A stretch of 64,000 nucleotides of DNA from Candidatus Poriferihabitaceae bacterium (GCA_965203265.1 CBDBBV010000002.1:1810773-1874772), one strand, 5' to 3'; positions 1-21,455 are shown, counted from the first letter of the stretch. Notes: generated by a model from the letters alone, not told the origin. Made by a program: numbers and translations.

Positions 1-513
1 GTTGATTCGGCGCGGCGCGGTTTCCACATCGATGCCCACCTGCCGATTCCAAGCGAAGGCGTACAGCGCTTGGTCGCCCGATAGTGTGTAGTTGAAGCAG
101 AGTTGGCCGGCGGCTGAGCGGTTGCCCAGAGCGGGCTTGCCGCCGACTCCGTTGGTGATCGCGAGCTGGTCGTTGGCGATGCCGCTGTAGGCGGACAGCA
201 GTAGTCTCATGCCGATTCGCCCGCCGAGATACATCGCCCGCCGCCGCGGATCCTGATGCAGATCGCCGCGGCGCAATTCCGCCGCAGTCAAGCAGGTTGC
301 GCCGACCTGCAAGCGCAACGGCGCGAGGTGCACAGCCCACAGGTGGATTTGGTTCGGCGACAATTTCGGCGCCGCCTCCTTGAGGGAACGCGGCGTCCAG
401 CGGGGGGCGACAGCGGCTACTCCGCCTAAGCCGCCTAAGTCGCCGAAGTCGTCGATTTCGCTGATTCCACCGGCGCTCTCGGCGGGCGGACGCACCGCCG
501 CGTGGCGTGTCAT
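1..513 (-). CDS. 4'-phosphopantetheinyl transferase (Sfp/EntD type), 3' end cut by window edge
   Basis: Manual minus-strand translation from ATG 513..511 gives MTRHAAVRPPAESAGG...NQIHLWAVHLAPL...LTAAELRRGDLHQDPRRRAMYLGGRIGMRLLLSAY...GKPAL...FNYTLSGDQALYAFAWNRQVGIDVE. The R-x-LLS, GKP and G-I-D-x-E blocks are PPTase hallmarks. The ORF runs off the window, so it is absent from the ORF track. Confidence 0.75.
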   Translation of the reverse strand, partial: MTRHAAVRPPAESAGGISEIDDFGDLGGLGGVAAVAPRWTPRSLKEAAPKLSPNQIHLWAVHLAPLRLQVGATCLTAAELRRGDLHQDPRRRAMYLGGRIGMRLLLSAYSGIANDQLAITNGVGGKPALGNRSAAGQLCFNYTLSGDQALYAFAWNRQVGIDVETAPRRIN

Positions 514-740
514 CCGCCGAAACCGGGACGGAAGTTGTTGATTCGCAACAACGCGGTTTCCTCGGCGGCGGCATCCAAGCCGAGACGCTTCTTTTCCAGA
601 ATGCGGTGTTGCAGCCCCTGCCGGTCGAACAGGTAGGTCGCGCTTCCCTGATGCAATTCCACCACGAAACCCTCCCCCGGCAGATTGTATATGCCGCCGA
701 GTTCGGTCTTTTCGCTGAGATCTACGGTGATCGCGGGCAT
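510..740 (-). CDS. hypothetical 76-aa protein ending in Gly-Gly
   Basis: ORF track, 76 aa. Its stop overlaps the PPTase ATG (ATGA), and the composition looks coding. No family recognised. Confidence 0.45.
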   Translation of the reverse strand: MPAITVDLSEKTELGGIYNLPGEGFVVELHQGSATYLFDRQGLQHRILEKKRLGLDAAAEETALLRINNFRPGFGG

Positions 741-870
741 AGTTTCTTCGGATGAATTCGGGTGCGCGGGGGTTTTGAGGGACGCGAATTATAATCCATC
801 TGCGACGCCTTCCGAATTGGCAATTTGCTAGAATGCCGCCGACATCGACCGACCGCAACCGAGACAGAAC

Positions 871-1521
871 ATGGATTACGAAACCGCGCGCGCCAACATG
901 ATCGAGCAGCAAATTCGCCCGTGGAATGTGCTGGCGACGCAGACTCTGGACGCCCTCAAGCGCATTCGCCGGGAGGATTTCGTGCCCGCCGAATGCCGCC
1001 ATCTGGCGTTCGCCGATGTGCAAATCCCGCTTGGCGGCGGCGAGGTCATGCTGGAACCCAAGGTGGGCGCACGCATGATGGAATCCCTGCAACTCGGCGG
1101 CGACGATGCGGCGCTGGTGGTCGGCGCCGGTAGCGGCTATCTGGTCGCCCTGCTGGCGTCGGTGTGTTCACAGGTTACCGCCGTGGAAATCGATGCGCGA
1201 CTGCTGGCGCAAGCGCGCCGCAATCTGGATCGCGCCGCCATCGATAATGCTACGCTGGAAGATGGCGATGCCCACGCCGGCTGGGGCGATGCAGGGCAAT
1301 TCGACGCCATTCTCATCAGCGGCTCGCTACCGCAGATCACCGCTGCGTGGTTCGCCGCGCTCGCCGAGGGTGGCCGTCTGGTCGGCATCGAGGGGAATCT
1401 GCCGGCTATGGAGGTGGTGTGCTACCGCAAAACCGGTGGCAGCATCGCGCGCCAATCGCTGTTTGAAACCGCGGCGCCGCGCTTGCGCAACGTCGTGGAA
1501 AAAATCGAGTTCCAATTCTGA
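871..1521 (+). CDS. protein-L-isoaspartate O-methyltransferase family protein
   Basis: ORF track, 216 aa. It has a SAM-binding block (VVGAGSGYLVALLA). A Pcm-like gene immediately upstream of tolC is a common gammaproteobacterial arrangement. Confidence 0.7.
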   Translation: MDYETARANMIEQQIRPWNVLATQTLDALKRIRREDFVPAECRHLAFADVQIPLGGGEVMLEPKVGARMMESLQLGGDDAALVVGAGSGYLVALLASVCSQVTAVEIDARLLAQARRNLDRAAIDNATLEDGDAHAGWGDAGQFDAILISGSLPQITAAWFAALAEGGRLVGIEGNLPAMEVVCYRKTGGSIARQSLFETAAPRLRNVVEKIEFQF

Positions 1522-1533
1522 GTTCCATTTCCG

Positions 1534-2853
1534 ATGAAAACAACGCAACCCAATTCACTTCGCCGCCTGACCATCGCCACCGTCCTGCTGACACTGACGC
1601 TGGCAGCGCCCAGCGTCGGTCGCGGCGACGATCTGTGGGACATCTACCAAATCGCGCTGGAGCACGACGCCACCTACCGCGCCGCCAGCCACGAATACGA
1701 AGGCGCCAAACTGCGCCTGCCGTTGGCCAAAGCCGCGCTCAACCCGTCCCTCGCCTTGACCGGCTCGGCCGGCTGGGCACGCAGCGACTCCACCGGCAGT
1801 TCGGTTACCGACGACGAAAGTCAGCTCGACCTGAACGCGACCCTGCCGCTCTACGATCCCACCCTGAGAAGGGAAGTCGATCAGGCCGAATTCGAGGTGG
1901 AGCGCGCTCGCGTCCAATTCGAGCAATCTCGCAACGAACTCATCCTGCGAGTGGCCGATCGCTATTTTCAGCTGCTAGCGGCGCGCGCCAACGCGGATGT
2001 GGCGCGGCGGCAGAAAGTAGCCATTCAACGGCAGCTGGATCTCGCCTCGGAACGCCTCAACGTCGGCTTGGGCACTCGCACCGATCTGTACGACGCCGAG
2101 GCGCGCTTACAGCAGGCGGTCGCCGACGAGATTCAAGCGAACAACGCCATCGACAATGCGGTACAGGCGCTCAAACAGGTCATCGGCACCACCCCCGAGG
2201 CGTTGACGCCCCTCGACAAGGATGCGCCGTTGCAACCGCCCGTTCCGAACTCGGCGGAGGTCTGGGTCGAACGAGCGCTCACCCACAATCTGGCGTTGCG
2301 GGCGGCCGACTTCGATCTGCAAATCGCCGACGCCGAAATCGAAAAACAAAATGCCGCGCGCTGGCCCACCATCGGCCTGAGCGCCAACCAACGGCGGCGA
2401 AACAGCACCGACGGGGTAGTCAATTCCACCACCTTCGGCGCGACCTTGAACTGGCCGCTGCGTTTGGACAAGGCAATACAGCTCAAAACCAAGCAAGCCG
2501 CATTGCAATACAACGCCGCCGAGCAATCCAGAGAATCTCTCAAACGGCAGGTGGAAGCCGACACCATCTCGGCCTACCTAGCGGTGGTCAGCGGCATCAG
2601 TCAGGTAACCGCCCTATCCGAGGCGGTACGCGCGGGCGCCAACGCGGTGCAGGCAAAGGACGAAGGCTTTCGCGCCGGCCTGACCACCAATCTGGATGTA
2701 CTCGACGCCCAACGGGATCTGGCGAGATCACGCACGGATTATCTGAGCGCGCGCTATGCCTTTATTTTGTCGGTGCTGCGTTTGGAGCAGGCGGTGGGGG
2801 ATTTGGATGAGGGGGATGTGAAGCGGGTCAATGGTTGGTTGGTGGAGAAATAA
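1534..2853 (+). CDS. tolC: TolC-family outer membrane efflux channel
   Basis: 439 aa with a signal peptide (LTIATVLLTLTLAAPSVG). The mature N-terminus DLWDIYQIALEHDATYRAA is typical of TolC, and the protein shows the two-repeat OEP architecture. Confidence 0.85.
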   Translation: MKTTQPNSLRRLTIATVLLTLTLAAPSVGRGDDLWDIYQIALEHDATYRAASHEYEGAKLRLPLAKAALNPSLALTGSAGWARSDSTGSSVTDDESQLDLNATLPLYDPTLRREVDQAEFEVERARVQFEQSRNELILRVADRYFQLLAARANADVARRQKVAIQRQLDLASERLNVGLGTRTDLYDAEARLQQAVADEIQANNAIDNAVQALKQVIGTTPEALTPLDKDAPLQPPVPNSAEVWVERALTHNLALRAADFDLQIADAEIEKQNAARWPTIGLSANQRRRNSTDGVVNSTTFGATLNWPLRLDKAIQLKTKQAALQYNAAEQSRESLKRQVEADTISAYLAVVSGISQVTALSEAVRAGANAVQAKDEGFRAGLTTNLDVLDAQRDLARSRTDYLSARYAFILSVLRLEQAVGDLDEGDVKRVNGWLVEK

Positions 2854-2882
2854 TCCGCCAAATCGATTTTCCGAACCACACC

Positions 2883-3254
2883 ATGGCCGCCATACCCGAT
2901 TTTACCAATGCCGAAATCGCCGCCGTGCGCGGGATGTTGGTTCAGTGTTGCCGTCGGGATGTGTTGATTCATCTTGCCGATGGCGAATTTTCCCTTGAAG
3001 ACGATGGCGCGGTCGGCTGCCCGACTGTGTATTGGAATGAGCGGGGCGCCAATTTCATCGTCTTCAAATGTGCGGCGGATCGCTACCGCGCGCGGTTTTT
3101 CTATACGCCGCACGAGCACTTCGGCAGTGGAATCGGCGAGTGCGACGATCCCGGCGAATGCGTGCGCGCGGTGCTGCAGGCCCAAGCGGAGCATGAGCGC
3201 GCGAGCGAGCGGGACGCCGAATCGCGGCGGGTGACTGCCCGAACCCATCCATGA
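2883..3254 (+). CDS. hypothetical protein
   Basis: This is the in-frame ATG (MAAIPDFTNAEIAAVRG...) inside track ORF 2835..3254. It lies between tolC and pfp on the same strand. No family recognised. Confidence 0.45.
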   Translation: MAAIPDFTNAEIAAVRGMLVQCCRRDVLIHLADGEFSLEDDGAVGCPTVYWNERGANFIVFKCAADRYRARFFYTPHEHFGSGIGECDDPGECVRAVLQAQAEHERASERDAESRRVTARTHP

Positions 3255-4516
3255 GCGGCAAGCGAAACGCCTTCTACGCCCAGTCCGGCGGCGTTACCTC
3301 GGTGATCAACGCCAGCGCCGCCGGAGTGATCGAAACGGCGCGGCGGCATCGGCGGCGCATCGGCGCACTCTACGCCGGGCGAGACGGCATCATCGGCGCC
3401 CTCACCGAGAGCTTGATCGACACCACCCAAGAAAGCACCGCGACCATCCGCAAACTGCGCCATACACCGGCCGGCGCCTTCGGCTCGTGCCGCTACAAGT
3501 TGCGCAGTTTGGAGGACAGTCGGCGCGAGTACGAGCGCCTGATCGAGGTGTTTTCGGCGCACGACATCGGCTATTTCCTGTACAACGGCGGCGGCGACTC
3601 GGCGGACACCTGCCTCAAGATCTCCCAACTGTCGCGCAGCATGGGCTACCCGCTGCAGGCGATTCACATCCCCAAGACCGTGGATAACGATCTGGCGGTA
3701 ACCGACAATTGTCCCGGATTCGGCTCGGTGGCGAAGTACATCGCCGTTTCCACTCGGGAGGCCAGTTTCGATGTGGCTTCCATGGCGCGCACTTCCACTC
3801 GGGTGTTCGTGCTCGAGGTCATGGGCCGCCACGCCGGATGGATCGCGGCGGCGGGCGCCATGGCGTCGGACGATCTCGTCAAGATTCCGGTGATCGTGTT
3901 GTTCCCTGAGATTCCGTTCGATCGCGCAAAATTTCTGGCGGAGGTGGAGCGCAAGGTGCAAACCCACGGCTATGTCTCGGTGGTGGTGTCCGAAGGGGTG
4001 CGCCACGCGGACGGCGGCTTCCTCTCCGAGCAGGGCTTGGTGGACGCCTTCGGCCACGCCCAGCTGGGCGGAGCGGCGCCGGTGGTGGCGCAGATGGTGA
4101 AGGCGGATCTGGGCTACAAGTATCACTGGGCGGTGGCGGATTATCTACAAAGATCGGCGCGGCATATCGCCTCGGCAACCGATGTGGAGCAGGCATTCGC
4201 GGTCGGGCAAGCGGCGGTGGAAATGGCCCTGGCCGGCGACAATGCGGTGATGCCGGCCATCGTGCGCGTGGGCAATCGCCCGTATCGCTGGAAGATCGCC
4301 GCCGCCGATCTGGCGGAGGTGGCCAATGTGGAGAAAAAGATGCCGCGCGATTTCATCAGCCAAGATGGTTTCGGCATCACCCGAAAATGCCGGGCGTATC
4401 TCGCGCCGCTCATGGCGGGCGAGGATTATCCGCCGTATCGCAATGGGCTGCCGGATTATGCGCGGTTGAAGAATGTGCCGGTGGTTAGGAAACTTGAGAC
4501 GGAGTTTGCGTTGTGA
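3251..4516 (+). CDS. pfp: 6-phosphofructokinase, probably pyrophosphate-dependent
   Basis: 421 aa with PFK motifs FYAQSGGVTSVINAS and PKTVDNDL. GGGDSADT has Asp where ATP-dependent PFKs have Gly (GGDGS). A membrane pyrophosphatase gene lies nearby. Confidence 0.8.
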   Translation: MSGKRNAFYAQSGGVTSVINASAAGVIETARRHRRRIGALYAGRDGIIGALTESLIDTTQESTATIRKLRHTPAGAFGSCRYKLRSLEDSRREYERLIEVFSAHDIGYFLYNGGGDSADTCLKISQLSRSMGYPLQAIHIPKTVDNDLAVTDNCPGFGSVAKYIAVSTREASFDVASMARTSTRVFVLEVMGRHAGWIAAAGAMASDDLVKIPVIVLFPEIPFDRAKFLAEVERKVQTHGYVSVVVSEGVRHADGGFLSEQGLVDAFGHAQLGGAAPVVAQMVKADLGYKYHWAVADYLQRSARHIASATDVEQAFAVGQAAVEMALAGDNAVMPAIVRVGNRPYRWKIAAADLAEVANVEKKMPRDFISQDGFGITRKCRAYLAPLMAGEDYPPYRNGLPDYARLKNVPVVRKLETEFAL

Positions 4517-4701
4517 CTTTGCAGCGGGCACGGGAATTGTTGAAGGTGCAGGTGGGTTTTGGCGGGGGGTATAACCGTCAGTCGGCCAAGTTGATACTCG
4601 ACGAGGTGGCACGCGAGCATGGGCGGGGGGCGGCGGATGAGTTGATTTTGGAGTTGGGGTTGGATGGGGTTTTTGGGTTTGAGGTTGGGGAGGGGGGTTG
4701 A
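4513..4701 (+). CDS. hypothetical small protein (62 aa)
   Basis: The GTG start overlaps the pfp stop. The N-terminal two thirds look like ordinary protein, but the C-terminus (GLDGVFGFEVGEGG) is encoded by the G-run tract, so the true end is uncertain. Confidence 0.35.
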   Translation: MTLQRARELLKVQVGFGGGYNRQSAKLILDEVAREHGRGAADELILELGLDGVFGFEVGEGG

Positions 4702-4704
4702 GGG
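4656..4704 (+). other. G-run tract (C-rich on the minus-strand transcript) at the left border of AT-rich patch 1
   Basis: G runs of 3-6 nt lie at 4656-59, 4666-69, 4675-77, 4687-90, 4692-97 and 4702-04. The tract sits directly downstream (minus sense) of the stop of the 4709..6058 gene. Confidence 0.6.
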
Positions 4705-4708
4705 TGGT

Positions 4709-6058
4709 TTAAGAAAGTTCTTTGACTTTCTGCAAAAAAGATTCTATCGCTTTTATTGTTTCCTGCACGATTTGTCTTCCAAGTTCTTTCCCCTGTTTTT
4801 CATCTGTCAGTTGTTGTACAAAATTTTCATCTTCATAGCGGAAATCATTATATTTGCAGCTCCCAAAATCTTTTGTGAGCAACCAGTACTTATTTTTACC
4901 CATACCTTCAATTTCGAGCGATACTTTACGATATTTCTGGTAAGGCTTATCCAAATCATCATATTTATCAATCCATTTTCTATTATCGGCACTCAGTTTA
5001 CTTCCATAACCATAACCACAATCATATTCTTCCTCTTCTTTTCTTATTTCTTTTCCCTCGAGAAGGGAAAAATTTAGCTGCACAGTCTGACACTCATTTT
5101 TGAAAAGTATTAACACAATAACATTTATTCCATCTCCAGCAAGAATTTTCCAACCAATTATCGACTCTTCCTTCTCGTTCCAATTTTCATACCGAACCCC
5201 AACATACTGTTTGAAAAAATCTCCATTTTCCTTAACTGCTTCACGGATATAGTTCGATAATCGATTCTTCAATTCTTTTTGAAAAAACTCAATGAAATTC
5301 TCCAAACAGGGAACCAGTTTGAAGTTTCCGTTCTTGAAAAAAGGATTGTTTTTCATAGAAAATTCCTCCAAATGAGTTAGATAAGTCTGACCAGTAAGTT
5401 TTTTCAGTAACGATTGATACTGAAACAAAATTCCCTTGATATGTGAAATGTCTGCTTCTTCTTTCTCCTTCATGCATATCGCTAACCATTTGATAATATG
5501 ATCCTTGTATGAAACCCGTAAAACTTTTTCCTTTTCAAGCCCTTCTCCAAGCATATATTCACTCGGCTCTCGTCCATCAAGCGTAAGATAAATTATCGCT
5601 ATATTTTCATCTTTATAGTTCTTTTTGGCATAGGAATAATATTTTCCAATCTGCCGTTCTTGTTCCCTTGCACCTATTTTGTTCTCAATCACAACGAATT
5701 TGTCAGCGTTTTTAATCAAAATATCTATAAACCCATCACCTGTATACGACTCTTTGGTTACTCTGAACTTAGCAAGTTCGGTTTCAGAAAATTCCCAAGT
5801 GAATTGACTCGCGTGGGTTCTCTGCAACCTCTCGAAAAATAGCCGCAAGAAAACCGTGCCTTGGATATGCGATCCATCTGGGTTCAACAAATCGGTCAAC
5901 AGGGCCGAATGCGTTTTCTCTTCATCTCTCTCCCTATCCAAAATCGAAAATATATTGAAATGCTCGCCCGTATCCCGCGCACATTCACCATATTTTTCCT
6001 TGATCAACCTGAATTGATCAAGGAAGCCTTCCAGATCACCTGTCTGTTGAATTTCCAT
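4709..6058 (-). CDS. PD-(D/E)XK nuclease family protein, paralog B, with an uncharacterised C-terminal half
   Basis: 449 aa and AT-rich. It carries the N-terminal block FNIFSIL...HSALLTDLLNP.GSH.QG and the catalytic D...ExK signature GFIDILIKNADKFVVIENK followed by QERQIGKYY. It resembles the family I recall as Pfam PDDEXK_4 (unverified). Confidence 0.75.
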   Translation of the reverse strand: MEIQQTGDLEGFLDQFRLIKEKYGECARDTGEHFNIFSILDRERDEEKTHSALLTDLLNPDGSHIQGTVFLRLFFERLQRTHASQFTWEFSETELAKFRVTKESYTGDGFIDILIKNADKFVVIENKIGAREQERQIGKYYSYAKKNYKDENIAIIYLTLDGREPSEYMLGEGLEKEKVLRVSYKDHIIKWLAICMKEKEEADISHIKGILFQYQSLLKKLTGQTYLTHLEEFSMKNNPFFKNGNFKLVPCLENFIEFFQKELKNRLSNYIREAVKENGDFFKQYVGVRYENWNEKEESIIGWKILAGDGINVIVLILFKNECQTVQLNFSLLEGKEIRKEEEEYDCGYGYGSKLSADNRKWIDKYDDLDKPYQKYRKVSLEIEGMGKNKYWLLTKDFGSCKYNDFRYEDENFVQQLTDEKQGKELGRQIVQETIKAIESFLQKVKELS

Positions 6059-6112
6059 CGCTACTACTCACATCAATGTCCGCCATTCGTTCGGAAACAC
6101 ATTTCGTGGCTA

Positions 6113-7384
6113 TTATTGGACTTGTTCCAGAAATGATTTTATCGATCTTGTTACTGTGGCAACGATTTCTTTCCCAAACTTCCTTCCCCTCTCTGCATTT
6201 TGCAATTTTCCTGCTTCATACTCCCAATTACGCGAGCTCATTGTGGCCCCTCTAACCGAATCATTTTTCATGCCTTCAACGTTAAGTGCCGCCTTAAGAT
6301 ATTTCTGGCAAGTTGCATTTGGGTACTTATCCATGCGGTGTCCCGATATATTACCATCATCTGTCTCGATATTGTCTCCCTCATAAAGGTAAAGAGAAAA
6401 ATAACATTTATCCTTCCAATGATCCAACAAGGCAATCACATTTACACCATCGCTATAATCAATTTTCCATCTCCCCAATACTTCATTATCCTTCCATTTC
6501 TTCAATTCTTCTTTAGTACTTCTTACTTTAATTTTCACGTATTTGTTGAAAAAATCTCTCTCATTTTCCGAATCGATCGCTTCGCGAATATATTGCCAAC
6601 ACCGAGTGGGCAATTCCTTCTTGAAAGATGCGATAGATTTCTCCAAAGCACCAACCAATTTATGGTTGTCGTTCTTGAAAAAAAGATCGTTGGTTTCCAT
6701 AATAAATTCCTCACGATAAGTTTGGTCGGTAAGTGCTTTCAGTAACGATTGATACTGAAACAAGGTTTCTCTGATATGTGGAATGCGCACCACTTCTTTC
6801 AAACAGCCATCCAACCACTTGATAATATGATCTCGATATGAAACCCGCAAAACTTCGTCTTCTCCAAGTTTTGTGCCGCGGGTATATTCACTGGCTTCAT
6901 CCCCCTCAAGCGTGAGGTAGATTACCACTATATTCTCATCCGCATAATTTTCTTTGGCATAATCATAATATCGACCAAGTTGCCGTTCCTGATCCCCCGC
7001 ATAAATCTTGTTCTCAATCACAACGCATTTGTCGTTTTTTTCGATGAGAATATCTATGCGCCCACCGCCCACATCGGCCTCTGCAATTACACTGAACTGA
7101 GCAAGTTCGATTTCGGACAATTCCCATTTGACTCGACTCTCGCAATCTTCCCGCAACATCTCGAAAAACAACCGCAAGAAAACCGTGCCCTGATCGTGCG
7201 ACCCTTTCGGATTCAACAAATCGGCAAGTAGCGCAGAATGCCGTATCTCCCTGCTCTCCATGCCCAAGATCGAAAACACATTGAAATTCTCACCCGTAAC
7301 CCGCGCCACAGCATCATATTTTTCCTTGATCAACCTGAATTGACGAAGGAAATTTTCCATCTTTTCAACCTGTTCGATTTCCAT
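6113..7384 (-). CDS. PD-(D/E)XK nuclease family protein, paralog A, with an uncharacterised C-terminal half
   Basis: Start taken at MEIEQVEKMENFLRQF (ATG 7384) inside track ORF 6113..7468. It has the same motifs as paralog B (FNVFSIL, RIDILIEKNDKCVVIENK, QERQLGRYY). The ATG lies 7 nt after the methyltransferase stop. Confidence 0.75.
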   Translation of the reverse strand: MEIEQVEKMENFLRQFRLIKEKYDAVARVTGENFNVFSILGMESREIRHSALLADLLNPKGSHDQGTVFLRLFFEMLREDCESRVKWELSEIELAQFSVIAEADVGGGRIDILIEKNDKCVVIENKIYAGDQERQLGRYYDYAKENYADENIVVIYLTLEGDEASEYTRGTKLGEDEVLRVSYRDHIIKWLDGCLKEVVRIPHIRETLFQYQSLLKALTDQTYREEFIMETNDLFFKNDNHKLVGALEKSIASFKKELPTRCWQYIREAIDSENERDFFNKYVKIKVRSTKEELKKWKDNEVLGRWKIDYSDGVNVIALLDHWKDKCYFSLYLYEGDNIETDDGNISGHRMDKYPNATCQKYLKAALNVEGMKNDSVRGATMSSRNWEYEAGKLQNAERGRKFGKEIVATVTRSIKSFLEQVQ

Positions 7385-7391
7385 AGCAGTT

Positions 7392-8228
7392 CTACACTCC
7401 CAACAACGGCGCGGTCGGATCGTAAATAGGCTTGCCCATCGGTCGGGTGCGCAGCTCCCCCGCGTCAAGCGCCCGTACCCGCGCCCGGGCTATCTGCACA
7501 TATTCTTCCACGATATCGCAGCCATAGCCTCGTCGTCCATGCTTGAGTGCGGCGATCACCGCCGATCCCACACCCATATACGGATCGAAGACGGCATCAT
7601 CTTCGTCGGTCATCGAAAGGATCAGGCGTTCGACTAGTTCGACGGGGAACTGGCATGGGTGAATCGTCTTCTCCGGATGATTGTTTTTGACATTCGGAAA
7701 CTCCCACACATCACTCGGATTCTTTCCCTTGGGGTTGCCCGACAACTTCCCCGCATTCGGCCCCTTGAAATGTTTCTTGTTCGGGTATTTGGACGGTACC
7801 CGAATCGGATCCAGATGCCAGATGTAGTCGTTGCCCTTGGTCCACCAATTGATCGTCTCGTAGCGACCGGAAAGTCGCTTGGTGCAATGCAAGCCGTGTC
7901 CGAAATGCCAGATGATTCGATTGCGAAGTTTCAGCCCTTGGGCGCGGAACAATGGATACAACAGCGTATCGAGCGGCACGATCTCTCCGCTTTCAACATA
8001 GTTGCCGACCTGCCAGCAGAGCGAACCTCGACCGTGCAACAGGCGGGCGCATTCGCGAATAACCTGCTCCTGCGCCGCGAGATATTCGTCCAGAGTTGAT
8101 TTCCCTTCGTAGGATTTGCCGAGATTGTAGGGTGGGGAAGTAACGATCAGATTGAACATCCCATCGGGCAGACGCGCCATGAATGGCACATTGTCCGAAC
8201 AGGCGAGGACGACTCGCTCACGCATCAT
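7392..8228 (-). CDS. beta-class DNA amino-methyltransferase (SPPY type, probably N4-cytosine or N6-adenine)
   Basis: Start taken at MMRERVV (8228) inside track ORF 7392..8330. Motif IV is LIVTSPPYNLGK, motif X is IHPCQFPVELVERLI and motif I is VFDPYMGVGSA. This motif order and wording resemble the M.PvuII-like group. Confidence 0.85.
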   Translation of the reverse strand: MMRERVVLACSDNVPFMARLPDGMFNLIVTSPPYNLGKSYEGKSTLDEYLAAQEQVIRECARLLHGRGSLCWQVGNYVESGEIVPLDTLLYPLFRAQGLKLRNRIIWHFGHGLHCTKRLSGRYETINWWTKGNDYIWHLDPIRVPSKYPNKKHFKGPNAGKLSGNPKGKNPSDVWEFPNVKNNHPEKTIHPCQFPVELVERLILSMTDEDDAVFDPYMGVGSAVIAALKHGRRGYGCDIVEEYVQIARARVRALDAGELRTRPMGKPIYDPTAPLLGV

Positions 8229-8307
8229 GGTTCGGCATCGGCACAGCAACCGCCTCCCGCGCCGGCAGGATCCGCGTTGCCACTCCAGCGACAACGCCCC
8301 GCATCCC

Positions 8308-10320
<2,013 letters not shown>

Positions 10321-10450
10321 GGAATCTACTCCTGAGATAATTGGCGGGGAAAAATCGAAGGCGGCGGACTATAGCCCCGTTGCCGCCTCGTGGCAACAGG
10401 CAGGCGGTGATGAATCGATCCGGTTTCCTTGCCGCCGCCGCGCTCGGCGG

Positions 10451-11197
10451 CTAACTGCACTTGCTCTCCCCGCAGTTGAGGCAGGTCAGGCAGTTGTCCA
10501 TTACCACCATGGCCTTGGTGTGGCATTTGCCGCACAACGACGCGCCTTCGGGGAAGACGCCTTCCTCCCCCTCGACCGGATCGGGGCTGATGGCCTGCTG
10601 TTGTTGCAGTTCCCGGCGCTTCTGATCGATCAACCGCCGTTGGTGCTCGTCGAGGGCGGGGGCGGCGATCATGCCGATCATCTGCAGGTGGGAGGCGATG
10701 GCGTCGCCGATCTCGGCAACCAGAGACGGCATGAATTTGCCGCCGCGGCGAAAGTAGCCGCCCTTCGGGTCGAACACGCTACGCAATTCCTGCACCAAGA
10801 AGGTTACATCGCCGCCCTTGCGGAATACCGCCGAGACGATCAGGGTGAGGGCGGAAATCCATTGGTAGTGATCCATGTTCTTGGAATTGATGAACATCTC
10901 GAACGGGCGGCGGCGCTCGTAGGGCGTGCCCGGATTGAGCACGATGTCGTTGATGGTGATGTAGAACGCATGCTCGGACACCGGCGTCTTGATCTTGTAA
11001 GTACTGCCCACCAGCATTTCCGGGCGCTCGACCTTTTCGTGCATGTGCGCGATGTTGTCGCCGCTCGGCTTGGGCGATTCGGCGGAGGCGGGCGGTGTTG
11101 CGGGCGGCGCGGCGGATGCGGCGGCGGCTACGTCCACTTCCGCTTCCGGCTTGACGATGTCGAAACCGATGATCTTGCGTTCGATCTTGATGCTCAT
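10451..11197 (-). CDS. nrdJb: class II (adenosylcobalamin-dependent) ribonucleotide reductase, C-terminal fragment
   Basis: 248 aa with a Cys-rich tail (CGKCHTKAMVVMDNCLTCLNCGESKCS). It starts 29 nt downstream of the large fragment, the split arrangement known from Pseudomonas. Confidence 0.75.
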   Translation of the reverse strand: MSIKIERKIIGFDIVKPEAEVDVAAAASAAPPATPPASAESPKPSGDNIAHMHEKVERPEMLVGSTYKIKTPVSEHAFYITINDIVLNPGTPYERRRPFEMFINSKNMDHYQWISALTLIVSAVFRKGGDVTFLVQELRSVFDPKGGYFRRGGKFMPSLVAEIGDAIASHLQMIGMIAAPALDEHQRRLIDQKRRELQQQQAISPDPVEGEEGVFPEGASLCGKCHTKAMVVMDNCLTCLNCGESKCS

Positions 11198-11226
11198 GTT
11201 GTTGTCTCCCGAAATGTCGGCGACGG

Positions 11227-13401
11227 CTAGAACCTGCCGTAGTAGCCTTCCTTCAAGGCGTCAAAAAGATTGGCGGCGGTATGCGTCTCGCCGTCGTATT
11301 CGATTTCCTCGTCGCCCTTGAGCTCGAGAGTACTGCCGTCGTCCAGAGCGAAGCGGTATCTGGTGTTCTCCAGATCCGCCTTCTTCACCAGCACGCCCTG
11401 AAATCGTTCCGGATTGAAACGAAAGGTGGTGCAGCCCTTGAGCCCTTTTTCCCAAGCGTATCGATAGATGTCCTGAAATTCCTCGAAGGGAAAATCGGTC
11501 GGCACGTTGGCGGTTTTCGAGATGGATGAATCGATCCACTTTTGCGCCGCGGCCTGTACATCCACATGCTGTTTCGGGGTGATGTCGGCGGCGGTGACGA
11601 AATAGTCCGGCAGAACGTTGTTCGGATCATCGGCAGCCACGCCCGCATCGGCGTTCACTAAGCGGCGATACGCCAGCAGCTCGTAGGAATACACCTCCAC
11701 CTTCTGCTTGGTTTTCTTGCCCGCCTGAATCACATTGCGGCTGTACTGGTGGGCGAAGGACGGCTCGATGCCATTGCTGACATTGTTGCCCAGCGACAGG
11801 CTGATGGTGCCGGTCGGAGCGATGGAAGTGTGGTGGGTGTAGCGGCAACCGCGCTCGGCGATGGCGTCGCGCAACGCCTGCGGAAACTGCTGCATATAGC
11901 GGCTGTAGCGGCTCATCAGCACCGCGCCCTGGACCCGGTCGCCAACCCGCCAGCCATCCTCTGCCATCTCCGGGCGGCGCGCCAGCATCTCGGTGGTTAC
12001 CGAAAATTCCTGCTCGAGAAGCGGCGCGCAGCCCTTTTCCTCGGCGAGTTTGATGCCGGTCTCCCAGCCCACCGTGGCCATCTCCCGCGCGACCCGCTCG
12101 GTGAACGCGAGGGACGCCTCGCCGCCGTAGCGCATGCGCAGCATGGTCAGCGCCGAACCCAAGCCGAGAAACCCCATGCCGTGGCGGCGCTTGTGCATGA
12201 TCTCGTCGCGCTGAGGGGAAAGGGGCAGTTCGTTCACCTCCACCACGTTGTCCAACATGCGCGAAAAGACGGCGACCACCTCGCGGTATTTCTCGAAGTT
12301 GAAACTCGCCTCGTCGGAAAACGGATTCTCCACAAACCGCGTCAGGTTGACCGAGCCGAGCAGACAGGCGCCGTAGGGCGGCAGCGGCTGCTCGCCGCAG
12401 GGGTTGGTGGCGCGGATGTTTTCGCAGAACCAGTTGTTGTTCATGGCGTTGATGCGATCGATCAGGATGAAGCCGGGCTCGGCATAGTCGTAGGTCGATT
12501 GCATGATCAGATGCCACAGGCGGCGCGCCGCCACCGAGCCGTACACCCGGCAGGCCACCTGACCGAGGTCGTTGACCACATAGTCGTCGCTGCTCGGCCA
12601 GCGGCGCCAGACGAGTTCGTGGTCGCCGCCCTCCACTTCCCGGACGGTTGCCGGAAACGACAGTTTCCACTCGGCATCGTCGCCGACCGCCTGCATGAAT
12701 TCGTCGGTGATCAGACAGGACAGGTTGAACTGGCGCAATCTCCCGTCCTCGCGCTTGGCGCGCACGAACGCCTCGATGTCCGGATGGCTGATGTCGAAGG
12801 TGCCCATCTGCGCGCCGCGCCGGCCGCCGGCGGAGGAGACGGTGAAACACATGGAATCGAAGATATCCATGAAGGACAGCGGGCCGGAAGTGTAGGCACC
12901 GGCGCCGCTGACGAAAGCGCCTCGGGGGCGCAGGGTGGAGAATTCATAGCCGATGCCGCAACCGGCCTTGAGGGTCAAGCCGGCTTCGTGCACCGAGGCC
13001 AACACGCCATCCATGGAATCCGGCAGGGTGCGCGACACGGTGCAGTTGATCGTGCTGGTGGCGGGCTTGTGGTGGCGCGCGCCGGCGTTGGCGATGATTC
13101 GCCCGGCCGGAGTGGCGCCGTTTTGCAGTGCCCAGAGGAATTTTTCATGCCAGTGCCGCTGGTTGTCTTCGCCGATTTCCACCGCCGCCAGCGCCCGCGC
13201 AACGCGCTCGAAAGTGGCATCGATATCCGCGTCCAACGGCGCGCCGTCCATGGTCTTCAGGCGATATTTCTGATCCCAGATATCGAGGGAAGTGGGTTGC
13301 AGTTCGAGCGGCGCGGCGGGCGCCTGCCGGAAAAGGCGATAGGCTGCCGCGTCGGTCTCTTTAATATCGGTGTCGCGCTGTGCGCCTGATGAATTCGGCA
13401 T
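11227..13401 (-). CDS. nrdJa: class II (adenosylcobalamin-dependent) ribonucleotide reductase, large fragment
   Basis: 724 aa with the RNR active-site block TNPCGEQPLPPYGACLLGSVNL and typical class II N-terminal regions. Confidence 0.85.
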   Translation of the reverse strand: MPNSSGAQRDTDIKETDAAAYRLFRQAPAAPLELQPTSLDIWDQKYRLKTMDGAPLDADIDATFERVARALAAVEIGEDNQRHWHEKFLWALQNGATPAGRIIANAGARHHKPATSTINCTVSRTLPDSMDGVLASVHEAGLTLKAGCGIGYEFSTLRPRGAFVSGAGAYTSGPLSFMDIFDSMCFTVSSAGGRRGAQMGTFDISHPDIEAFVRAKREDGRLRQFNLSCLITDEFMQAVGDDAEWKLSFPATVREVEGGDHELVWRRWPSSDDYVVNDLGQVACRVYGSVAARRLWHLIMQSTYDYAEPGFILIDRINAMNNNWFCENIRATNPCGEQPLPPYGACLLGSVNLTRFVENPFSDEASFNFEKYREVVAVFSRMLDNVVEVNELPLSPQRDEIMHKRRHGMGFLGLGSALTMLRMRYGGEASLAFTERVAREMATVGWETGIKLAEEKGCAPLLEQEFSVTTEMLARRPEMAEDGWRVGDRVQGAVLMSRYSRYMQQFPQALRDAIAERGCRYTHHTSIAPTGTISLSLGNNVSNGIEPSFAHQYSRNVIQAGKKTKQKVEVYSYELLAYRRLVNADAGVAADDPNNVLPDYFVTAADITPKQHVDVQAAAQKWIDSSISKTANVPTDFPFEEFQDIYRYAWEKGLKGCTTFRFNPERFQGVLVKKADLENTRYRFALDDGSTLELKGDEEIEYDGETHTAANLFDALKEGYYGRF

Positions 13402-13553
13402 GATTTTCGTGACGGTTCTGTTTGGTTCGCTCTACCCATGCCCGCCCGCTTCGGGCGCGCCGGACGCCTCCTCGAGAAACCCCCGTTTTCCCTGCCAAAC
13501 GGCTGTCTCGGCGGCAACCGGCAATCTGCGAAAATCGCTGTTTGCCTCGTTAA

Positions 13554-13569
13554 ACACCATATATTGGGG
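13554..13569 (-). promoter_or_regulatory. candidate NrdR box (proximal)
   Basis: The minus-strand 16-mer ccccaatatatggtgt matches about 13 of 16 positions of the remembered gammaproteobacterial NrdR consensus acaCwAtATaTwGtgt. It lies about 150 nt upstream of the nrdJa ATG. Confidence 0.5.
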
Positions 13570-13585
13570 TTTAAGTCGCGATAGT

Positions 13586-13604
13586 ACACCAATATGTAGG
13601 GTGT
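13586..13604 (-). promoter_or_regulatory. candidate NrdR box (distal, imperfect)
   Basis: acaccaatatgtagggtgt has palindromic acacc/ggtgt arms. Its start is offset 32 bp from the proximal box, the usual three-helical-turn tandem spacing. The core match is weaker. Confidence 0.35.
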
Positions 13605-13632
13605 TTGTCAAAACCATTTCCCGCTGTCTCAC

Positions 13633-14643
13633 TCAATCGTCCAGCGCCGACAGCACCCGCTCGGGCCGCAGTTGCCGAAGACAGTCGAGGTGGCCGAGGG
13701 GGCATTCCCGCTGGAAGCAGGGGCTGCATTTCAGGCGCAGGTTGAGGAGTTCGCAGTTGTCGCTCAGCGGCGGGGTGAATGCATCGCTGGACGAGCCGTA
13801 GATGGCGATCACGCGGCAGCCGATGGCCGCGGCGACATGCATTAGGCCGGAATCGTTGGTTACCGCACAGCGCGCCAGCGACATCAGATCGATGGCCTCG
13901 CCGAGGGTGGTGCGGCCGCTGAGATCGGCACAACGTTGTCGGCAAATTCGGTTGATGCGTTGGCAGATCGCCCGATCGTTTTGCGAGCCGAACAGCCACA
14001 CCTGCCAACCCTGCTGCAGCTGCTCCTCGGCCACTTCAGCGAAATACTCCGCCGGCCAGCGTTTGGCCGGGCCGTACTCGGCGCCGGGGCACAGCGCCAG
14101 AATCCGCGTGGTCGGCGCATCGACTTCGAGGCCGAAGCGCGCCGCGGTTTGGCTGACCAGATCCCGCTCCACCACTAGCGCCGGATGGGGAATATGTGCG
14201 CTCGGCGGCGCCGATTTCGGCAGGCCGAGGGCGACGAAACGCTGGGCATTCACCGGCAACGCCTGCCGATCGAGGAGGCGGATGTCGTTCAGCAACCCCC
14301 AGCGCTGCTCGCCGAGATAGCCGGTGCGCACGGGAATCTTCGCAAACCACGGCACCAGTGCGGATTTGAAGGAGCCCGGCAGGACGATGGCGCGGTGGAA
14401 ATTCGACCGCCTGAGCGCCCGCCCCAACTTGCGGCGCACGCTCAGGCCGAGTTGGCCGTGCCCCACGGGCAGGCGGACGGTGCCGCCGACTTCCGGCATT
14501 CGCGCCAGTATCGGCATGCTCCAGGGCGGCGCGAGTACGGTGATTTCGGCGCCCGGCTCGTCTCGCTTGAGCACCTTGAAGAGGCTCTGCGCCATGACCA
14601 TGTCGCCGACCCAGGCCGGCCCCACCACCAGAATTTTGTTCAT
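13633..14643 (-). CDS. waaF: ADP-heptose:LPS heptosyltransferase II
   Basis: 336 aa. The N-terminus MNKILVVGPAWVGDMVMAQSLFKVLK and overall GT9 layout are typical of WaaF. Confidence 0.8.
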   Translation of the reverse strand: MNKILVVGPAWVGDMVMAQSLFKVLKRDEPGAEITVLAPPWSMPILARMPEVGGTVRLPVGHGQLGLSVRRKLGRALRRSNFHRAIVLPGSFKSALVPWFAKIPVRTGYLGEQRWGLLNDIRLLDRQALPVNAQRFVALGLPKSAPPSAHIPHPALVVERDLVSQTAARFGLEVDAPTTRILALCPGAEYGPAKRWPAEYFAEVAEEQLQQGWQVWLFGSQNDRAICQRINRICRQRCADLSGRTTLGEAIDLMSLARCAVTNDSGLMHVAAAIGCRVIAIYGSSSDAFTPPLSDNCELLNLRLKCSPCFQRECPLGHLDCLRQLRPERVLSALDD

Positions 14644-14677
14644 GGCCGCGATGTTCGGCCGGTGCCGCGCACCGGAA

Positions 14678-14920
14678 TCAGCTAGGCGTCTCCGCCGAAT
14701 CGACGAGTAGGTACAACGTGCCGCAATAGGGGCAGCGCTGCTCGCCGCTCTCCATGGGCAGATAGACTCGCGGATGGGAGTCCCACAGACGCTTGCCGGG
14801 CATGGGGCAGTGCAGCGGCAGGTCGGCCGCGCTCACCTCCACCCGCCGCTGGGCGTTGGGCAGGTCGTGCGCCGCCTTGGGCGTTTGCGGTGTTTCGGAT
14901 GCTTCGGACGTTTCAGACAC
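14678..14920 (-). CDS. zinc-finger domain protein (CHCC-type)
   Basis: 80 aa. LHCPMPG...RCPYCGTLY forms a four-ligand zinc knuckle. The GTG start lies inside a 9-bp tandem repeat that encodes SETSEASET. Confidence 0.55.
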   Translation of the reverse strand: MSETSEASETPQTPKAAHDLPNAQRRVEVSAADLPLHCPMPGKRLWDSHPRVYLPMESGEQRCPYCGTLYLLVDSAETPS

Positions 14921-14935
14921 TTCGGACCTCGGATC

Positions 14936-15856
14936 TCAGATATAGGTAAGCCATTCGCGATGACACGGTATGCGGTCGTGCACCGCATCGAAGAATCGGC
15001 GCTGAATTCTTTCGGTGATGGGGCCGCGTCCGCCGGCGCCGATGCGGCGGTTGTCCAGCTCGCGAATCGGCGTAACCTCCGCCGCGGTGCCGGTGAAGAA
15101 CGCCTCGTCGCAGATGTACACCTCATCTCGGGTGATGCGCTTTTCCACCAGCGGCAGCCCTTCATCCGCGAGCAGCCGGACGACCGTGTTGCGGGTGATG
15201 CCGTCCAGCGCCGAGGTCAGATCCGGTGTGTACACCACGTCGTCGCGCACGATGAACAGGTTCTCGCCGCTGCCCTCCATGACGAAGCCGTTGGTGTCCA
15301 GCAGCAGCGCCTCGTCGTAGCCGGTTTCCACCGCTTCCTGCAAGGCGAGGATGGAATTGATGTAATGCCCGTTGGCCTTGGCGCGGCACATGCTGACATT
15401 GACATGGTGGCGGGTGTAGGACGAGACGCGCACGCGGATGCCCTTTTCCATGCTCTCCTCGCCGAGATAGGTGCCCCATTCCCACGCCGCGATGGCCACA
15501 TGCACGCTCAGATTGTCGGCGCGGATGCCCATGCCCTCGGAACCGTAGAACGCCATCGGCCGCAGATATCCGGAGGTCAGATTGTTGTCCTTGACCACCT
15601 GCCGCTGCGCCGCCATCAGGGTATCGGTGTCGTAGGGTATCTTCATATTGAGGATGTGCGCCGATCGTAGCAGGCGATCGGTGTGGTCGCGCAGGCGAAA
15701 AATCGCGGTTCCCCGGCCGGTGTCGTAGGCGCGCACCCCCTCGAATACCCCCAGACCATAGTGCAGGGTATGGGTCAGCACATGCACCTGCGCCTCCCGC
15801 CAGGGGACGAATTCCCCGTCCAACCAGATCACGCCATCACGGTCACTGAACGACAT
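14936..15856 (-). CDS. ilvE: branched-chain amino acid aminotransferase
   Basis: ATG at 15856 (MSFSDRDGVIWLDGEFVPWREAQVHV), with GGAG 9 nt upstream, is preferred over the GTG at 15871. It has class IV aminotransferase motifs. Confidence 0.85.
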   Translation of the reverse strand: MSFSDRDGVIWLDGEFVPWREAQVHVLTHTLHYGLGVFEGVRAYDTGRGTAIFRLRDHTDRLLRSAHILNMKIPYDTDTLMAAQRQVVKDNNLTSGYLRPMAFYGSEGMGIRADNLSVHVAIAAWEWGTYLGEESMEKGIRVRVSSYTRHHVNVSMCRAKANGHYINSILALQEAVETGYDEALLLDTNGFVMEGSGENLFIVRDDVVYTPDLTSALDGITRNTVVRLLADEGLPLVEKRITRDEVYICDEAFFTGTAAEVTPIRELDNRRIGAGGRGPITERIQRRFFDAVHDRIPCHREWLTYI

Positions 15857-16017
15857 TTTGTTCGACTCCACGGAAATTTTTTCAACCGCACTAGATAATT
15901 CACCTCGCCGCCATTGTCAACCGAAAATTTGCCGCAAGCGTCGCGCGTGCCGCAAATATCAAGTTCCCCGGCGGCTTCATCCGCGCTAGAATTGCGCCGT
16001 GAGCGGAGCGGCGGCCA

Positions 16018-17166
16018 GTGAAAATTGCGACTTTTTCCCGTATTGACGACATCGATGCGCCCCAGTGGAACGCTCTGGTGCGCGCCCGTTATCCCTTCCT
16101 GCAACACGGATTCCTGTCCGCTCTGGAGCGCCACGGCTGCGTCGGCGCGCACGCCGGCTGGATTCCCCGACATATCGGCTGCTTCGACGGCGACGGCACG
16201 CTGGTGGGCGCCATGCCGTTGTACGAGAAGCACAACTCCTGGGGCGAATTCGTCTTCGACCACGCCTGGGCCGACGCCTTCGAGCGCGCCGGCCTCGCCT
16301 ATTACCCCAAATTGGTCAACGCCATTCCGTTCACCCCCGCCTCGGGTCAGCGGGTGCTGGCGCAAGCGGCGCGGCGCGAGACCATCGTGCAGGCGTTGGC
16401 GGACGGCGCCCGCGCGTTGATGCGGCGCGGGCGTTTCAGCGGCGTGCACAGTTTGTTCCTCGCCGCCGACGAGTTCGACCTGCTGTGCACCGACGACGCC
16501 GTGTTGCGCGCCGACTGCCAGTTCCATTGGCACAATCGGAACTACCGGAATTTCGACCAGTTTCTCGAAACCCTCAAGGCGAAGAAACGCAAGAACATTC
16601 GCCGGGAACGGCAGCGGGCGGTGCATTCGGGGATACGCATCCGCCGCCTCGACGGCCACACTGCGAGCGAGCGGGACTGGCGGGACTTCACCGAGATGTA
16701 TCGCGGGATATACCAGCGCAAATACGGCTATCCGGCCTTCAATCAGCCGTTCTTCACCGAGGTGGCGGAGATCATCCCCGATCAAATTCAGCTGCTGCTG
16801 GCGCATCGCGACGGGCGGGCGGTGGGCGCGGCGCTGATGTATCTCGACGACCATACCCTGTACGGCCGCCATTGGGGATGCCGCGAGCGCCTCGACTGCC
16901 TGCATTTCGAGCTGTGCTATTACCAAGGAATCGAGATCTGCATCGAACGCGGCTTGCGGCGCTTCGACCCCGGCGCTCAAGGGGAGCACAAGATCGCGCG
17001 CGGTTTCGCGCCGGTGCGCACGCGCTCGCTGCATTGGATGGCGCACAGCCCGTTCACTCAGGCGATCAGGCAGTTCGCCGGACGGGAAGCCGCCGGCGTG
17101 CGCCGCTACATGGACGCGGTCGAGGGGCATTCCCCCTACCATCGCCCGGACGGCGACGCGGCGTGA
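16018..17166 (+). CDS. GNAT/FemAB-like acyltransferase family protein (DUF482-like)
   Basis: 382 aa with a GTG start. The N-terminus IDAPQWNALV...PFLQHGFLSALE...GW.P.H is characteristic of this family. Confidence 0.6.
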   Translation: MKIATFSRIDDIDAPQWNALVRARYPFLQHGFLSALERHGCVGAHAGWIPRHIGCFDGDGTLVGAMPLYEKHNSWGEFVFDHAWADAFERAGLAYYPKLVNAIPFTPASGQRVLAQAARRETIVQALADGARALMRRGRFSGVHSLFLAADEFDLLCTDDAVLRADCQFHWHNRNYRNFDQFLETLKAKKRKNIRRERQRAVHSGIRIRRLDGHTASERDWRDFTEMYRGIYQRKYGYPAFNQPFFTEVAEIIPDQIQLLLAHRDGRAVGAALMYLDDHTLYGRHWGCRERLDCLHFELCYYQGIEICIERGLRRFDPGAQGEHKIARGFAPVRTRSLHWMAHSPFTQAIRQFAGREAAGVRRYMDAVEGHSPYHRPDGDAA

Positions 17167-17197
17167 GCGCGGTCGGCTCAGCGTAGGGAGTAGGGCG

Positions 17198-17980: not shown

Positions 17981-18155
17981 CGCCGCCGATTTCGGCGTGA
18001 ATCGCGCCGCCGGATGGCATACAATGCGCCCCCGCCCGAAGACGCCCGTGGCCACTTGCCGCGCGCATGGCGGAGCCGGATTTTTCCGACACGATCGATT
18101 TTCCGATTGCCTATTTCGTCCCGTTCGCCCTGTTCGCCCCATTCGCCTCGTCGTC

Positions 18156-18743
18156 ATGTCTTCTCCCGCCGTGCTCATCCTCTCGGCTCCATCTGGAGCG
18201 GGCAAGACCAGCCTCGCGCGAACTCTGGTGGCGCGCCGCGCGGATGTGGCGCTGGCGGTGTCTCACACCACCCGCCCACGGCGCCCCGGCGAGCGCGACG
18301 GCAGCGACTATCATTTCGTCGATGAGGCGGAATTCGAGGCGATGATCGCGGCCAACCGCTTCATCGAGCACGCCACGGTGTTCGGAAACCGCTACGGCAC
18401 TTCCGCGCACGCCGTCGAAACCCTCATTGCCCGCGGCAAACACGCCATTCTCGAGATCGACTGGCAGGGCGCACGCGCCGTGCGCCGCAGATTCCCGCAG
18501 GCGAGATCGGTGTTCGTCATGCCGCCTTCGCTGGCGGCGCTGGAAGAGCGGCTGAAATTCCGGCGGCAGGACACCGACGAGGTCATCGCCGCGCGCATGC
18601 GCGCCGCCGCCGATGAAATGAGCCACCGGGAAGAGTATGATTATGTGATCGTCAACGATCACTTCGAGCGGGCGCTGGCGAAGTTGGAAGCCATTCTGCC
18701 GGCATCCGGCGATGGTGATGGTGGCGAGACGGCGGCTGAGTAA
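18156..18743 (+). CDS. gmk: guanylate kinase
   Basis: Start taken at [20 protein letters not shown] (P-loop) within track ORF 17877..18743. It belongs to the conserved gmk-rpoZ-spoT cluster. Confidence 0.9.
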
Positions 18744-18784
18744 GTCGAGTAAGTTGAACAAGTGCTGCTTACCGTTTCCGCTCT

Positions 18785-18847: not shown

Positions 18848-18858
18848 GGAGTTTGCAA

Positions 18859-21403: not shown

Positions 21404-21455
21404 GATCGAAACCGAGATCGAAACTGCGCCCGCGCCCGTCGACCACCCCCGCACA

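Follow-up and report, generated by a model that had tools for sequence, protein, structure and literature searches.

Candidate defence systems in the PADLOC PDC series are defined by their recurrent embedding inside known defence loci such as those of restriction-modification (R-M) (PMC12881386), and one of these candidates, PDC-S26, is among the frequent systems of enterobacterial pipolins (PMC11551731). The Pfam family PDDEXK_4 (PF14281) is listed with the function 'Unknown' in its source paper (PMC3424549), and for PDC-S26, PDDEXK_4 or PF14281 the searchable literature contained a passing mention and a 'function unknown' table row, with no demonstrated function. Among DNA methyltransferases (MTases) of the beta group, which carry DPPY or SPPY, M.BamHI and M.BglII are N4-methylcytosine (N4mC) methylases and M.BstYI is 'possibly' one (PMC2890505). 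Here we analyzed a locus which combines these families in a 64,000-nucleotide (nt) stretch from Candidatus Poriferihabitaceae bacterium (GCA_965203265.1, CBDBBV010000002.1:1810773-1874772; hereafter the window), where three co-oriented minus-strand open reading frames (ORFs), one MTase and two nuclease-family paralogues named A and B, lie between hppA and pfk. We suggest, with a probability of about 0.6, that two unrelated defence-type elements share a variable hppA|pfk slot here, which makes the locus a composite and not one R-M-like operon. A first-pass annotation, made by a model from the sequence alone, had described an AT-rich three-gene operon with a layout outside the standard R-M types; the three ORFs, their coordinates, the gaps of 7 nt (MTase to A) and 54 nt (A to B), the position downstream of hppA and the non-standard layout were all confirmed. 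The AT-richness was true for the nuclease genes (G+C 0.36-0.42 against ~0.64 in the flanks) and not for the MTase gene, which is intermediate (0.56).

The MTase proved to be of the beta class, and the motifs read earlier as TSPPY, HPCQFP and DPYMGVGSA were verified (TSPPY at residues 30-34, HPCQFP at 190, FDPYMGVGS at 214), with matches to Pfam N6_N4_Mtase (PF01555, E = 2e-49) and PADLOC MTase_II (E = 1.8e-78). Its homologues were very numerous and tightly conserved (the top 120 being 76-100% identical), and in 3/3 contexts examined (P0126, P0124 and P0235, with MTases 79-84% identical) the MTase gene was followed, with a stop/start overlap, by a gene of PF09195 (Endonuc-BglII) for ~203 amino acids (aa), which was frameshifted in one of the three lineages and whose product aligned over its whole length with the crystallised BstYI (E = 3.8e-84). 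Therefore, the MTase of the window belongs to a BstYI/BglII-type Type IIP pair. No cognate BstYI-like endonuclease gene or remnant was found in the 64-kb window when two BstYI-like proteins were used in tblastn (best E = 0.7). The MTase itself was full length, and only its last 4-5 residues deviated from those of its relatives (...YDPTAPLLGV* vs ...YDPTLPNGGH*), these residues being encoded by a 21-nt repeat of the 3' end of hppA. The two copies, 916 nt apart, were the 2 matches in the window, and two matches occurred in 0/100 shuffles; they bracket the leader and the MTase only, and copy 2 is placed exactly where the cognate endonuclease gene would start. The same 21-mer was single-copy at the hppA stop in more distant relatives without the MTase (L083-L087), and both copies were present in L001, a metagenome scaffold with ~95% identical flanks which carries the MTase. 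Between the window and L001 the MTase was 99% identical, with 37 synonymous and 5 non-synonymous changes and a ratio of non-synonymous to synonymous divergence (dN/dS) of 0.036, which points to strong purifying selection on a gene that is kept functional as an orphan methylase. We conclude that the MTase is a separate unit, which either came without its cognate endonuclease (203 aa) or lost it.

N4-cytosine methylation at RGATCY-like (RGATCY or AGATCT) sites is predicted for this MTase, since both the chemistry and the site were derived from the SPPY motif and the family data in PMC2890505. In the host part of the window (1..4700 and 8331..64000) we counted 34 RGATCY sites where a third-order Markov model predicts 53.6 +/- 7.3, with the deficit mostly in AGATCC/GGATCT (10 vs 26 +/- 5.3) and total GATC as expected; this under-representation would fit, though weakly, an earlier contact with a BstYI-type endonuclease. 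In addition, the MTase leader contained a GGATCC site (8262..8274), which fits RGATCY and reads AGATCC at the same position in L001, and which might be the remnant of a regulatory or autoregulatory site.

For the two nucleases, the earlier by-eye estimate of paralogs with about 55-60% identity in the N-terminal part and much lower identity in the C-terminal part was close to the computed values: A and B shared 48% identity over the full length (BLASTP, E = 9e-120), 63% over residues 1-212 and 41% over residues 213-423. Both matched Pfam PDDEXK_4 (E = 1.5e-41 and 4e-36; 142.8 and 125.1 bits against a gathering cut-off of 22.3), and PDLC04983, one of the PADLOC PDC-S26 models PDLC04969-04983, covered residues 6-421 of A (E = 2.9e-88) and residues 10-443 of B (E = 2.8e-74). 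Since this match runs from end to end, the C-terminal halves, for which no recognised match had been noted, are part of the catalogued family, and the homologues are to that extent already known, as a PADLOC candidate. Searches of Pfam, NCBIfam and PDB sequences with A and B returned the N-domain only, or nothing, and protein A had no match in PDB by sequence even at E = 10. The intact D...ExK core reported for both proteins was found again (D111, E124 and K126 in A; D112, E125 and K127 in B) and was invariant in an alignment of 99 family sequences, which had 24 invariant columns including E46, H49, D111, E124, N125, K126, Q135 and Y139; all 24 residues were present in the intact A and B ORFs. 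The PD-(D/E)XK nucleases of RecB/Cas4 type have a four-motif pattern of E / D / ExK / QxxxY, and the invariant residues of the family fit it; the PDDEXK_1 and Cas4_II profiles matched A and B weakly.

AlphaFold2 models of A and B were confident (mean pLDDT 88.5 and 84.7) and agreed in the order of their secondary-structure elements. A long helix at the N-terminus is followed by a core of the alpha-beta-beta-beta-alpha-beta type, which carries the catalytic residues, then by a helical linker (~183-282) and by a C-terminal alpha/beta domain whose last element is a long helix. In the A model, D111 was located in strand 108-116 and E124/K126 in strand 119-126, with flanking helices 46-57 and 135-146, and the catalytic residues thus lie on the second and third beta-strands of the core. 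The N-domain, and only this domain, matched a 200-aa stand-alone PD-(D/E)XK protein among the BFVD viral models (E = 5e-10, target-normalised TM-score 0.82). Foldseek against PDB gave no significant match for either model (for A, none with E below 0.06), and its best matches were weak, local and non-significant ones to the nuclease cores of Bax1, Can2, R2 RLE, OkrAI and AF1548. Top fold matches to Spt16/prolidase were discarded as spurious (TM-scores ~0.1, root-mean-square deviation above 20 Å).

Mean pairwise identity in the family fell from 0.50 for the N-domain to 0.27 for the linker and 0.18 for the C-domain, which is hypervariable throughout PDC-S26. When 1.84 billion representative proteins were scanned exhaustively by HMMER with the profile of the A and B C-halves, only 4 proteins were obtained at E <= 1e-3. 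The C-domain was also considered as a degenerate second PD-(D/E)XK domain, which was rejected by hhalign of the N- against the C-domain profile (probability 0.1%). Such a hypervariable domain could in principle read modified bases in invading DNA while the N-domain cuts, which would make A and B Type IV-like enzymes; the family is solitary, without a methylase, it occurs in defence neighbourhoods that include Type I/IIG/IV R-M genes, and its coexistence with an orphan methylase would be tolerated. We consider this unlikely, given that none of the modified-base reader folds (SRA, EVE/ASCH, YTH, winged-helix) was detected by Foldseek in either model, that the PADLOC Type IV models (mREase_IV) had no match to A or B, and that MspJI-type enzymes have the opposite domain order; the C-domain may nevertheless have a novel reader fold.

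The same slot in L001 contains hppA, the same MTase, only one PDC-S26 gene (P0002), a small ORF and pfk. At the DNA level the window and L001 were ~95% identical through hppA, the MTase gene and the start of A, after which the identity decayed, to become high again near position 4600; inside this interval blastn gave 74-85% identity or no alignment. Correspondingly, A and P0002 were ~93% identical over residues 1-150, 60-80% over residues 150-240 and 30-45% beyond, and their synonymous divergence (dS) was 0.15 for codons 1-150, 0.56 for codons 151-245 and then saturated, against 0.06-0.22 in the flanking genes; dN/dS was 0.31 in the orthologous N-terminal part of A. A block of ~2.3 kb, which runs from the C-terminal half of A through the spacer to the whole of B, has no orthologous counterpart in the 0.4-kb equivalent of L001 and looks imported or replaced by recombination, not diverged in place. 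The dS gradient likewise points to recombination. The single gene of L001 was not explained as a simple deletion chimera of A and B, for its middle is not close to either of them and its tail shares only 76% identity with that of B. Further, the more distant relatives L083-L087 also have a PDC-S26 gene between hppA and pfk, with a DUF4258 gene and a gene for a 149-aa helix-turn-helix (HTH)-like protein upstream instead of the MTase. Since a single PDC-S26 gene sits there with other upstream neighbours, the nuclease gene is the old resident and the neighbours come and go, and the hppA|pfk slot behaves as a small variable defence islet. The DUF4258 and 149-aa HTH_31-like pair of L083-L087 is toxin-antitoxin-like, and a GmrSD_N+HNH gene and a gene for a 721-aa N6_Mtase/HSDR_N protein were seen near the slot in these relatives.

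To place the adjacency of MTase and nuclease, we used a neighbourhood survey of 80 family loci from different species, with ORFs from a simple longest-ORF caller. A beta-class MTase was directly adjacent to the family gene in 1/80 loci (L007) and nearby in one more (L049). No methyltransferase family was among the commonest 25 Pfam families of the 87 same-strand neighbours within 300 nt, in which AAA (6), RNase_T (5) and WYL/WCX (5) were the most frequent, and in the PADLOC census Type II MTases made up <= ~5% of the neighbours, among which defence-type genes were common (WYL, DEDDh/PDC-S48, Cas3c, Type I/IIG/IV R-M genes, mad2). A word-indexed search gave 756 homologues in Bacteroidota, Gammaproteobacteria, plasmids and pipolins; 40 plasmid records carry family members, of which H2 was examined and had no adjacent MTase, while the other listed plasmid matches had a generic PD-(D/E)XK annotation only. 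Family members do, then, occur elsewhere without an MTase. Moreover, a PDC-S26 gene beside an R-M component is just what the definition of a PDC by recurrent embedding predicts (PMC12881386).

At L007 (7027-10198) an MTase gene is followed after 62 nt by a PDC-S26 gene and then by an ORF of 219 aa that PDDEXK_4 matches in part. Its MTase is unrelated to that of the window and belongs to a very abundant CcrM-like group (N6_N4 and RAMA domains), a full-length relative of which sits alone, without PDC-S26. As this group is normally solitary, L007 is a second adjacency and not evidence for a dedicated partnership. The L007 methylase is without the RAMA domain that its ~371-aa relatives carry, and insertion of PDC-S26 may have truncated it. 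A hidden conserved small partner upstream of the family gene was also looked for and rejected, as L003 and L083-L087 are the only loci with the 149-aa HTH protein and the other recurrent neighbour clusters reach <= 6/87. In the Bacteroidota loci L013 and L070 (also L015, L029 and L064) the PDC-S26 gene was flanked by a ~350-380-aa protein, probably AAA-family, and a ~300-aa protein, probably WYL/WCX; in L013 and L070 the order was ~350-380-aa protein, PDC-S26, ~300-aa protein, and this arrangement may be a recurrent multi-gene variant.

These data bear directly on the idea that the three genes form one functional system in which the MTase is the partner or self-marker, in the form of a hybrid R-M-like unit where a BstYI-type methylase has been recruited to mark self for PDC-S26 nucleases attacking unmodified DNA. 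In its favour, the MTase and A genes are co-oriented across a 7-nt gap with no terminator-like site between them, the arrangement is found in two genomes, the MTase is strongly purified by selection, and L007 has another MTase directly upstream of a PDC-S26 gene. Even so, we hold this to be highly unlikely. An adjacent MTase is absent in ~95% of the loci and on the examined plasmid, the slot of L083-L087 holds the nuclease gene without the MTase, this type of MTase has its own BstYI-like partner elsewhere, the target duplication brackets the MTase alone, and the L007 methylase is of the unrelated, normally solitary group. Furthermore, between the window and L001 the nuclease C-halves share only ~45% identity, against 99% for the MTase, so the specificities of MTase and nucleases cannot be co-varying. 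To a related idea, a non-canonical R-M-like system in which PDC-S26 co-opted the orphaned methylase as one self-marker for exchangeable nuclease modules with swappable C-domains, L007 with its partial second copy being a second example, we give hardly any weight.

The survey also bears on the meaning of the pair. A single family copy was present in ~90% of the 80 species loci, and tandem same-strand members were found in ~8-9/80. In the window, L079 and L010 the two copies are each other's nearest relatives, with N-halves ~50% identical and C-halves too diverged for BLAST; in L050 each tandem copy has closer solitary relatives in other genomes; and in L030 and L074 the canonical PDC-S26 gene comes second, after a member of a distant subfamily. 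Compared in this way, the tandem pairs arose independently, and they do not sort consistently into an 'A-type' and a 'B-type' clade, which speaks against an obligate heterodimer. Such an enzyme, in which A and B would be two subunits with one catalytic site each, as in BbvCI/Bpu10I, would agree with the two intact, adjacent and probably co-transcribed genes, with N-domains 63% identical that could share a dimer interface, and with the few other tight pairs (3-10-nt gaps, as in L030 and L074). We judge it improbable, as L001, the closest relative, carries only one gene in this slot, about nine tenths of the loci have one copy, the pairs are of independent origin, and no methyltransferase pair is present, only one, unrelated MTase. 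In the unrelated Bacteroidales loci L030 (574-2980) and L074 (6633-9131), the distant PDDEXK_4 members 3-10 nt upstream were 42% identical to each other, and this pair type is the only hint of a conserved two-gene form.

We therefore return to the composite of two elements in one slot. The earlier annotation had offered a BbvCI-like heterodimer, two effectors with different specificities, or a system in which the MTase marks self; of these, two effectors is favoured and the other two are disfavoured, the single-system version being unsupported in view of the BstYI-like pairing of the MTase, the 21-nt duplication, the overwhelmingly MTase-free family and the L001 allele. The composite origin, the orphan state of the MTase, the PDC-S26 membership of A and B with their intact nuclease motifs, the usually solitary habit of the family and the exchange of the C-domain by recombination come directly from the comparisons, and the mechanism is inferred. 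In the composite, the MTase is the M half of a BstYI/BglII-type Type IIP system, without its endonuclease and retained as an orphan, and A and B are tandem diverged copies of the normally solitary single-gene candidate defence nuclease PDC-S26. Each PDC-S26 protein could act as an autonomous sensor-effector: its N-terminal PD-(D/E)XK domain (E, D, ExK, QxxxY) would be a metal-dependent nuclease, and the helical linker with the hypervariable C-domain may recognise an invader-specific cue or substrate and license cleavage, such that two copies with differing C-domains might widen the range of invaders. The MTase would act independently of the nucleases, for instance by shielding RGATCY sites from incoming BstYI-type systems.

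Several points weigh against the composite. The sensor role of the C-domain is purely a deduction, with no structural or sequence match for that domain from Foldseek or the PDB sequence search. MTase and A are so closely spaced, with no predicted terminator between them and with the arrangement kept in two genomes, that they are probably co-transcribed; L007 is a second, independent adjacency of an MTase and PDC-S26, with a partial second copy; the neighbour calls in the 80 loci come from a crude gene caller; and PDC-S26 has its candidate status by 'guilt-by-embedding' only and was not one of those tested in PMC12881386. It may also be asked whether A and B have any immune role. They could instead be selfish genes, serve the maintenance of a mobile element, or be passengers that decay at a hotspot of recombination. 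The patchy distribution, the foreign G+C, the copies on plasmids and pipolins (PMC11551731), the candidate status of PDC-S26 in defence and the many housekeeping neighbours (e.g. Tex, FtsZ, HAD) would suit that explanation. It is nevertheless quite unlikely, in that both ORFs are intact with all 24 invariant residues, dN/dS is 0.31 in the orthologous N-terminal part of A, the family gene persists in the same slot across diverged relatives, and no transposase, integrase or terminal repeats were found flanking the nuclease genes.

The features of the slot are collected in Table 1. A promoter and terminator scan found no terminator-like site in the leader on the minus strand, and its promoter and terminator counts were not above those of shuffled sequence. 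The small ORF beside pfk overlaps the pfk stop, measures 61-63 aa in every syntenic relative (L001, L083-L087) and had no Pfam match.

Table 1. Coordinates of the features in and around the hppA|pfk slot, counted from the first nucleotide of the window.
Feature	Position	Strand	Remarks
hppA (H+-pyrophosphatase)	8308..10320	-	left anchor of the slot; PF03030 in syntenic loci
Copy 1 of the 21-nt direct repeat (GCGCCGTTGTTGGGGGTGTAG)	8308..8328	-	last 6 codons and stop of hppA
79-nt leader, hppA stop to MTase start	8229..8307	-	conserved in L001
MTase, orphan beta-class DNA methyltransferase of BstYI/BglII type, 278 aa	7392..8228	-	SPPY motif IV at 8127-8138
Copy 2 of the 21-nt repeat, 20/21 identical	7392..7412	-	last codons and stop of the MTase (APLLGV*)
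PDC-S26 paralogue A, 423 aa	6113..7384	-	PDDEXK_4 ~6752-7285, helical linker, variable C-terminal alpha/beta domain ~6116-6739
Motif residues of A	E46 7247-7249, D111 7052-7054, E124 7013-7015, K126 7007-7009, Q135 6980-6982, Y139 6968-6970	-	
A-B spacer, 54 nt	6059..6112	-	
PDC-S26 paralogue B, 449 aa	4709..6058	-	architecture as A; PDDEXK_4 ~5420-5959
Motif residues of B	E46 5921-5923, D112 5723-5725, E125 5684-5686, K127 5678-5680, Q136 5651-5653, Y140 5639-5641	-	
Block not orthologous to the single-gene relative L001: A from ~codon 150, spacer, all of B	~4600..6935	-	blastn, dS
pfk (3251..4516) and conserved 62-aa ORF (4513..4701)	3251..4701	+	right anchor of the slot, convergent with B

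Elsewhere in the window we observed a second low-G+C island on the minus strand (29733..32336; 0.41-0.49 vs 0.64), which carries two paralogous ORFs in tandem (418 and 407 aa); both encode an N6_N4 DNA methyltransferase with an HNH nuclease domain fused at the C-terminus. The island is flanked by ALAD and a GBBH-like_N gene and is another tandem-paralogue, defence-like islet in the window.

The value of these results is mainly corrective: adjacency and a short gap are insufficient to call an R-M operon in methylase-dense genomes, and the window alone has at least 3 N6_N4 genes. On the composite reading, the non-standard R-M layout is two elements sharing a variable slot, A and B belong to a candidate family that is already catalogued, and the MTase is an orphan of the ordinary kind from a well-known type of R-M system. 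Beyond this correction, the widespread PDC-S26 family is of interest for its conserved nuclease core and a fast-evolving C-domain without a match among solved structures. The locus is also a natural experiment, in which two near-identical genomes carry one and two copies with differing C-terminal modules in the same slot, and which could show whether the C-domain determines the target range.

Compared with known systems, the locus differs from classical Type II R-M in that the nuclease family is not regularly accompanied by an MTase and that the MTase and the nucleases neither co-vary nor are co-inherited, the MTase bearing marks of a separate origin in its own G+C and in the 21-nt duplication around it. 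It is like BbvCI/Bpu10I (Type IIT) in having two adjacent PD-(D/E)XK paralogues, each with an intact catalytic site, but here there are no paired cognate methylases, only one subunit is present in L001, and pairs are rare and originated independently elsewhere. The MTase resembles those of the BstYI/BglII Type IIP systems in its beta-class motif order and SPPY, as in the N4mC enzymes M.BglII and M.BamHI, whereas the endonuclease gene is wholly missing and the site and base chemistry of the MTase are predictions. Shedu (SduA, DUF4263) joins a PD-(D/E)XK defence nuclease to a highly variable accessory or sensor domain, and A and B are alike in concept as single-protein nucleases of this kind; the Pfam family is another one, the domain order is opposite, and neither DUF4263 nor PADLOC SduA matched A or B at E <= 1, and the resemblance is one of analogy only. 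With PDDEXK_4, the N-terminal 180 residues of A and B match above the cut-off and E, D, ExK and QxxxY are invariant, although the PDB structural matches to PD-(D/E)XK nuclease cores are not significant. With PDC-S26, the two tandem copies and a C-terminal variant almost private to the clade set A and B apart, while they share with it the end-to-end match, and the family has the single-gene habit, the R-M and defence neighbourhood and the presence on mobile elements.

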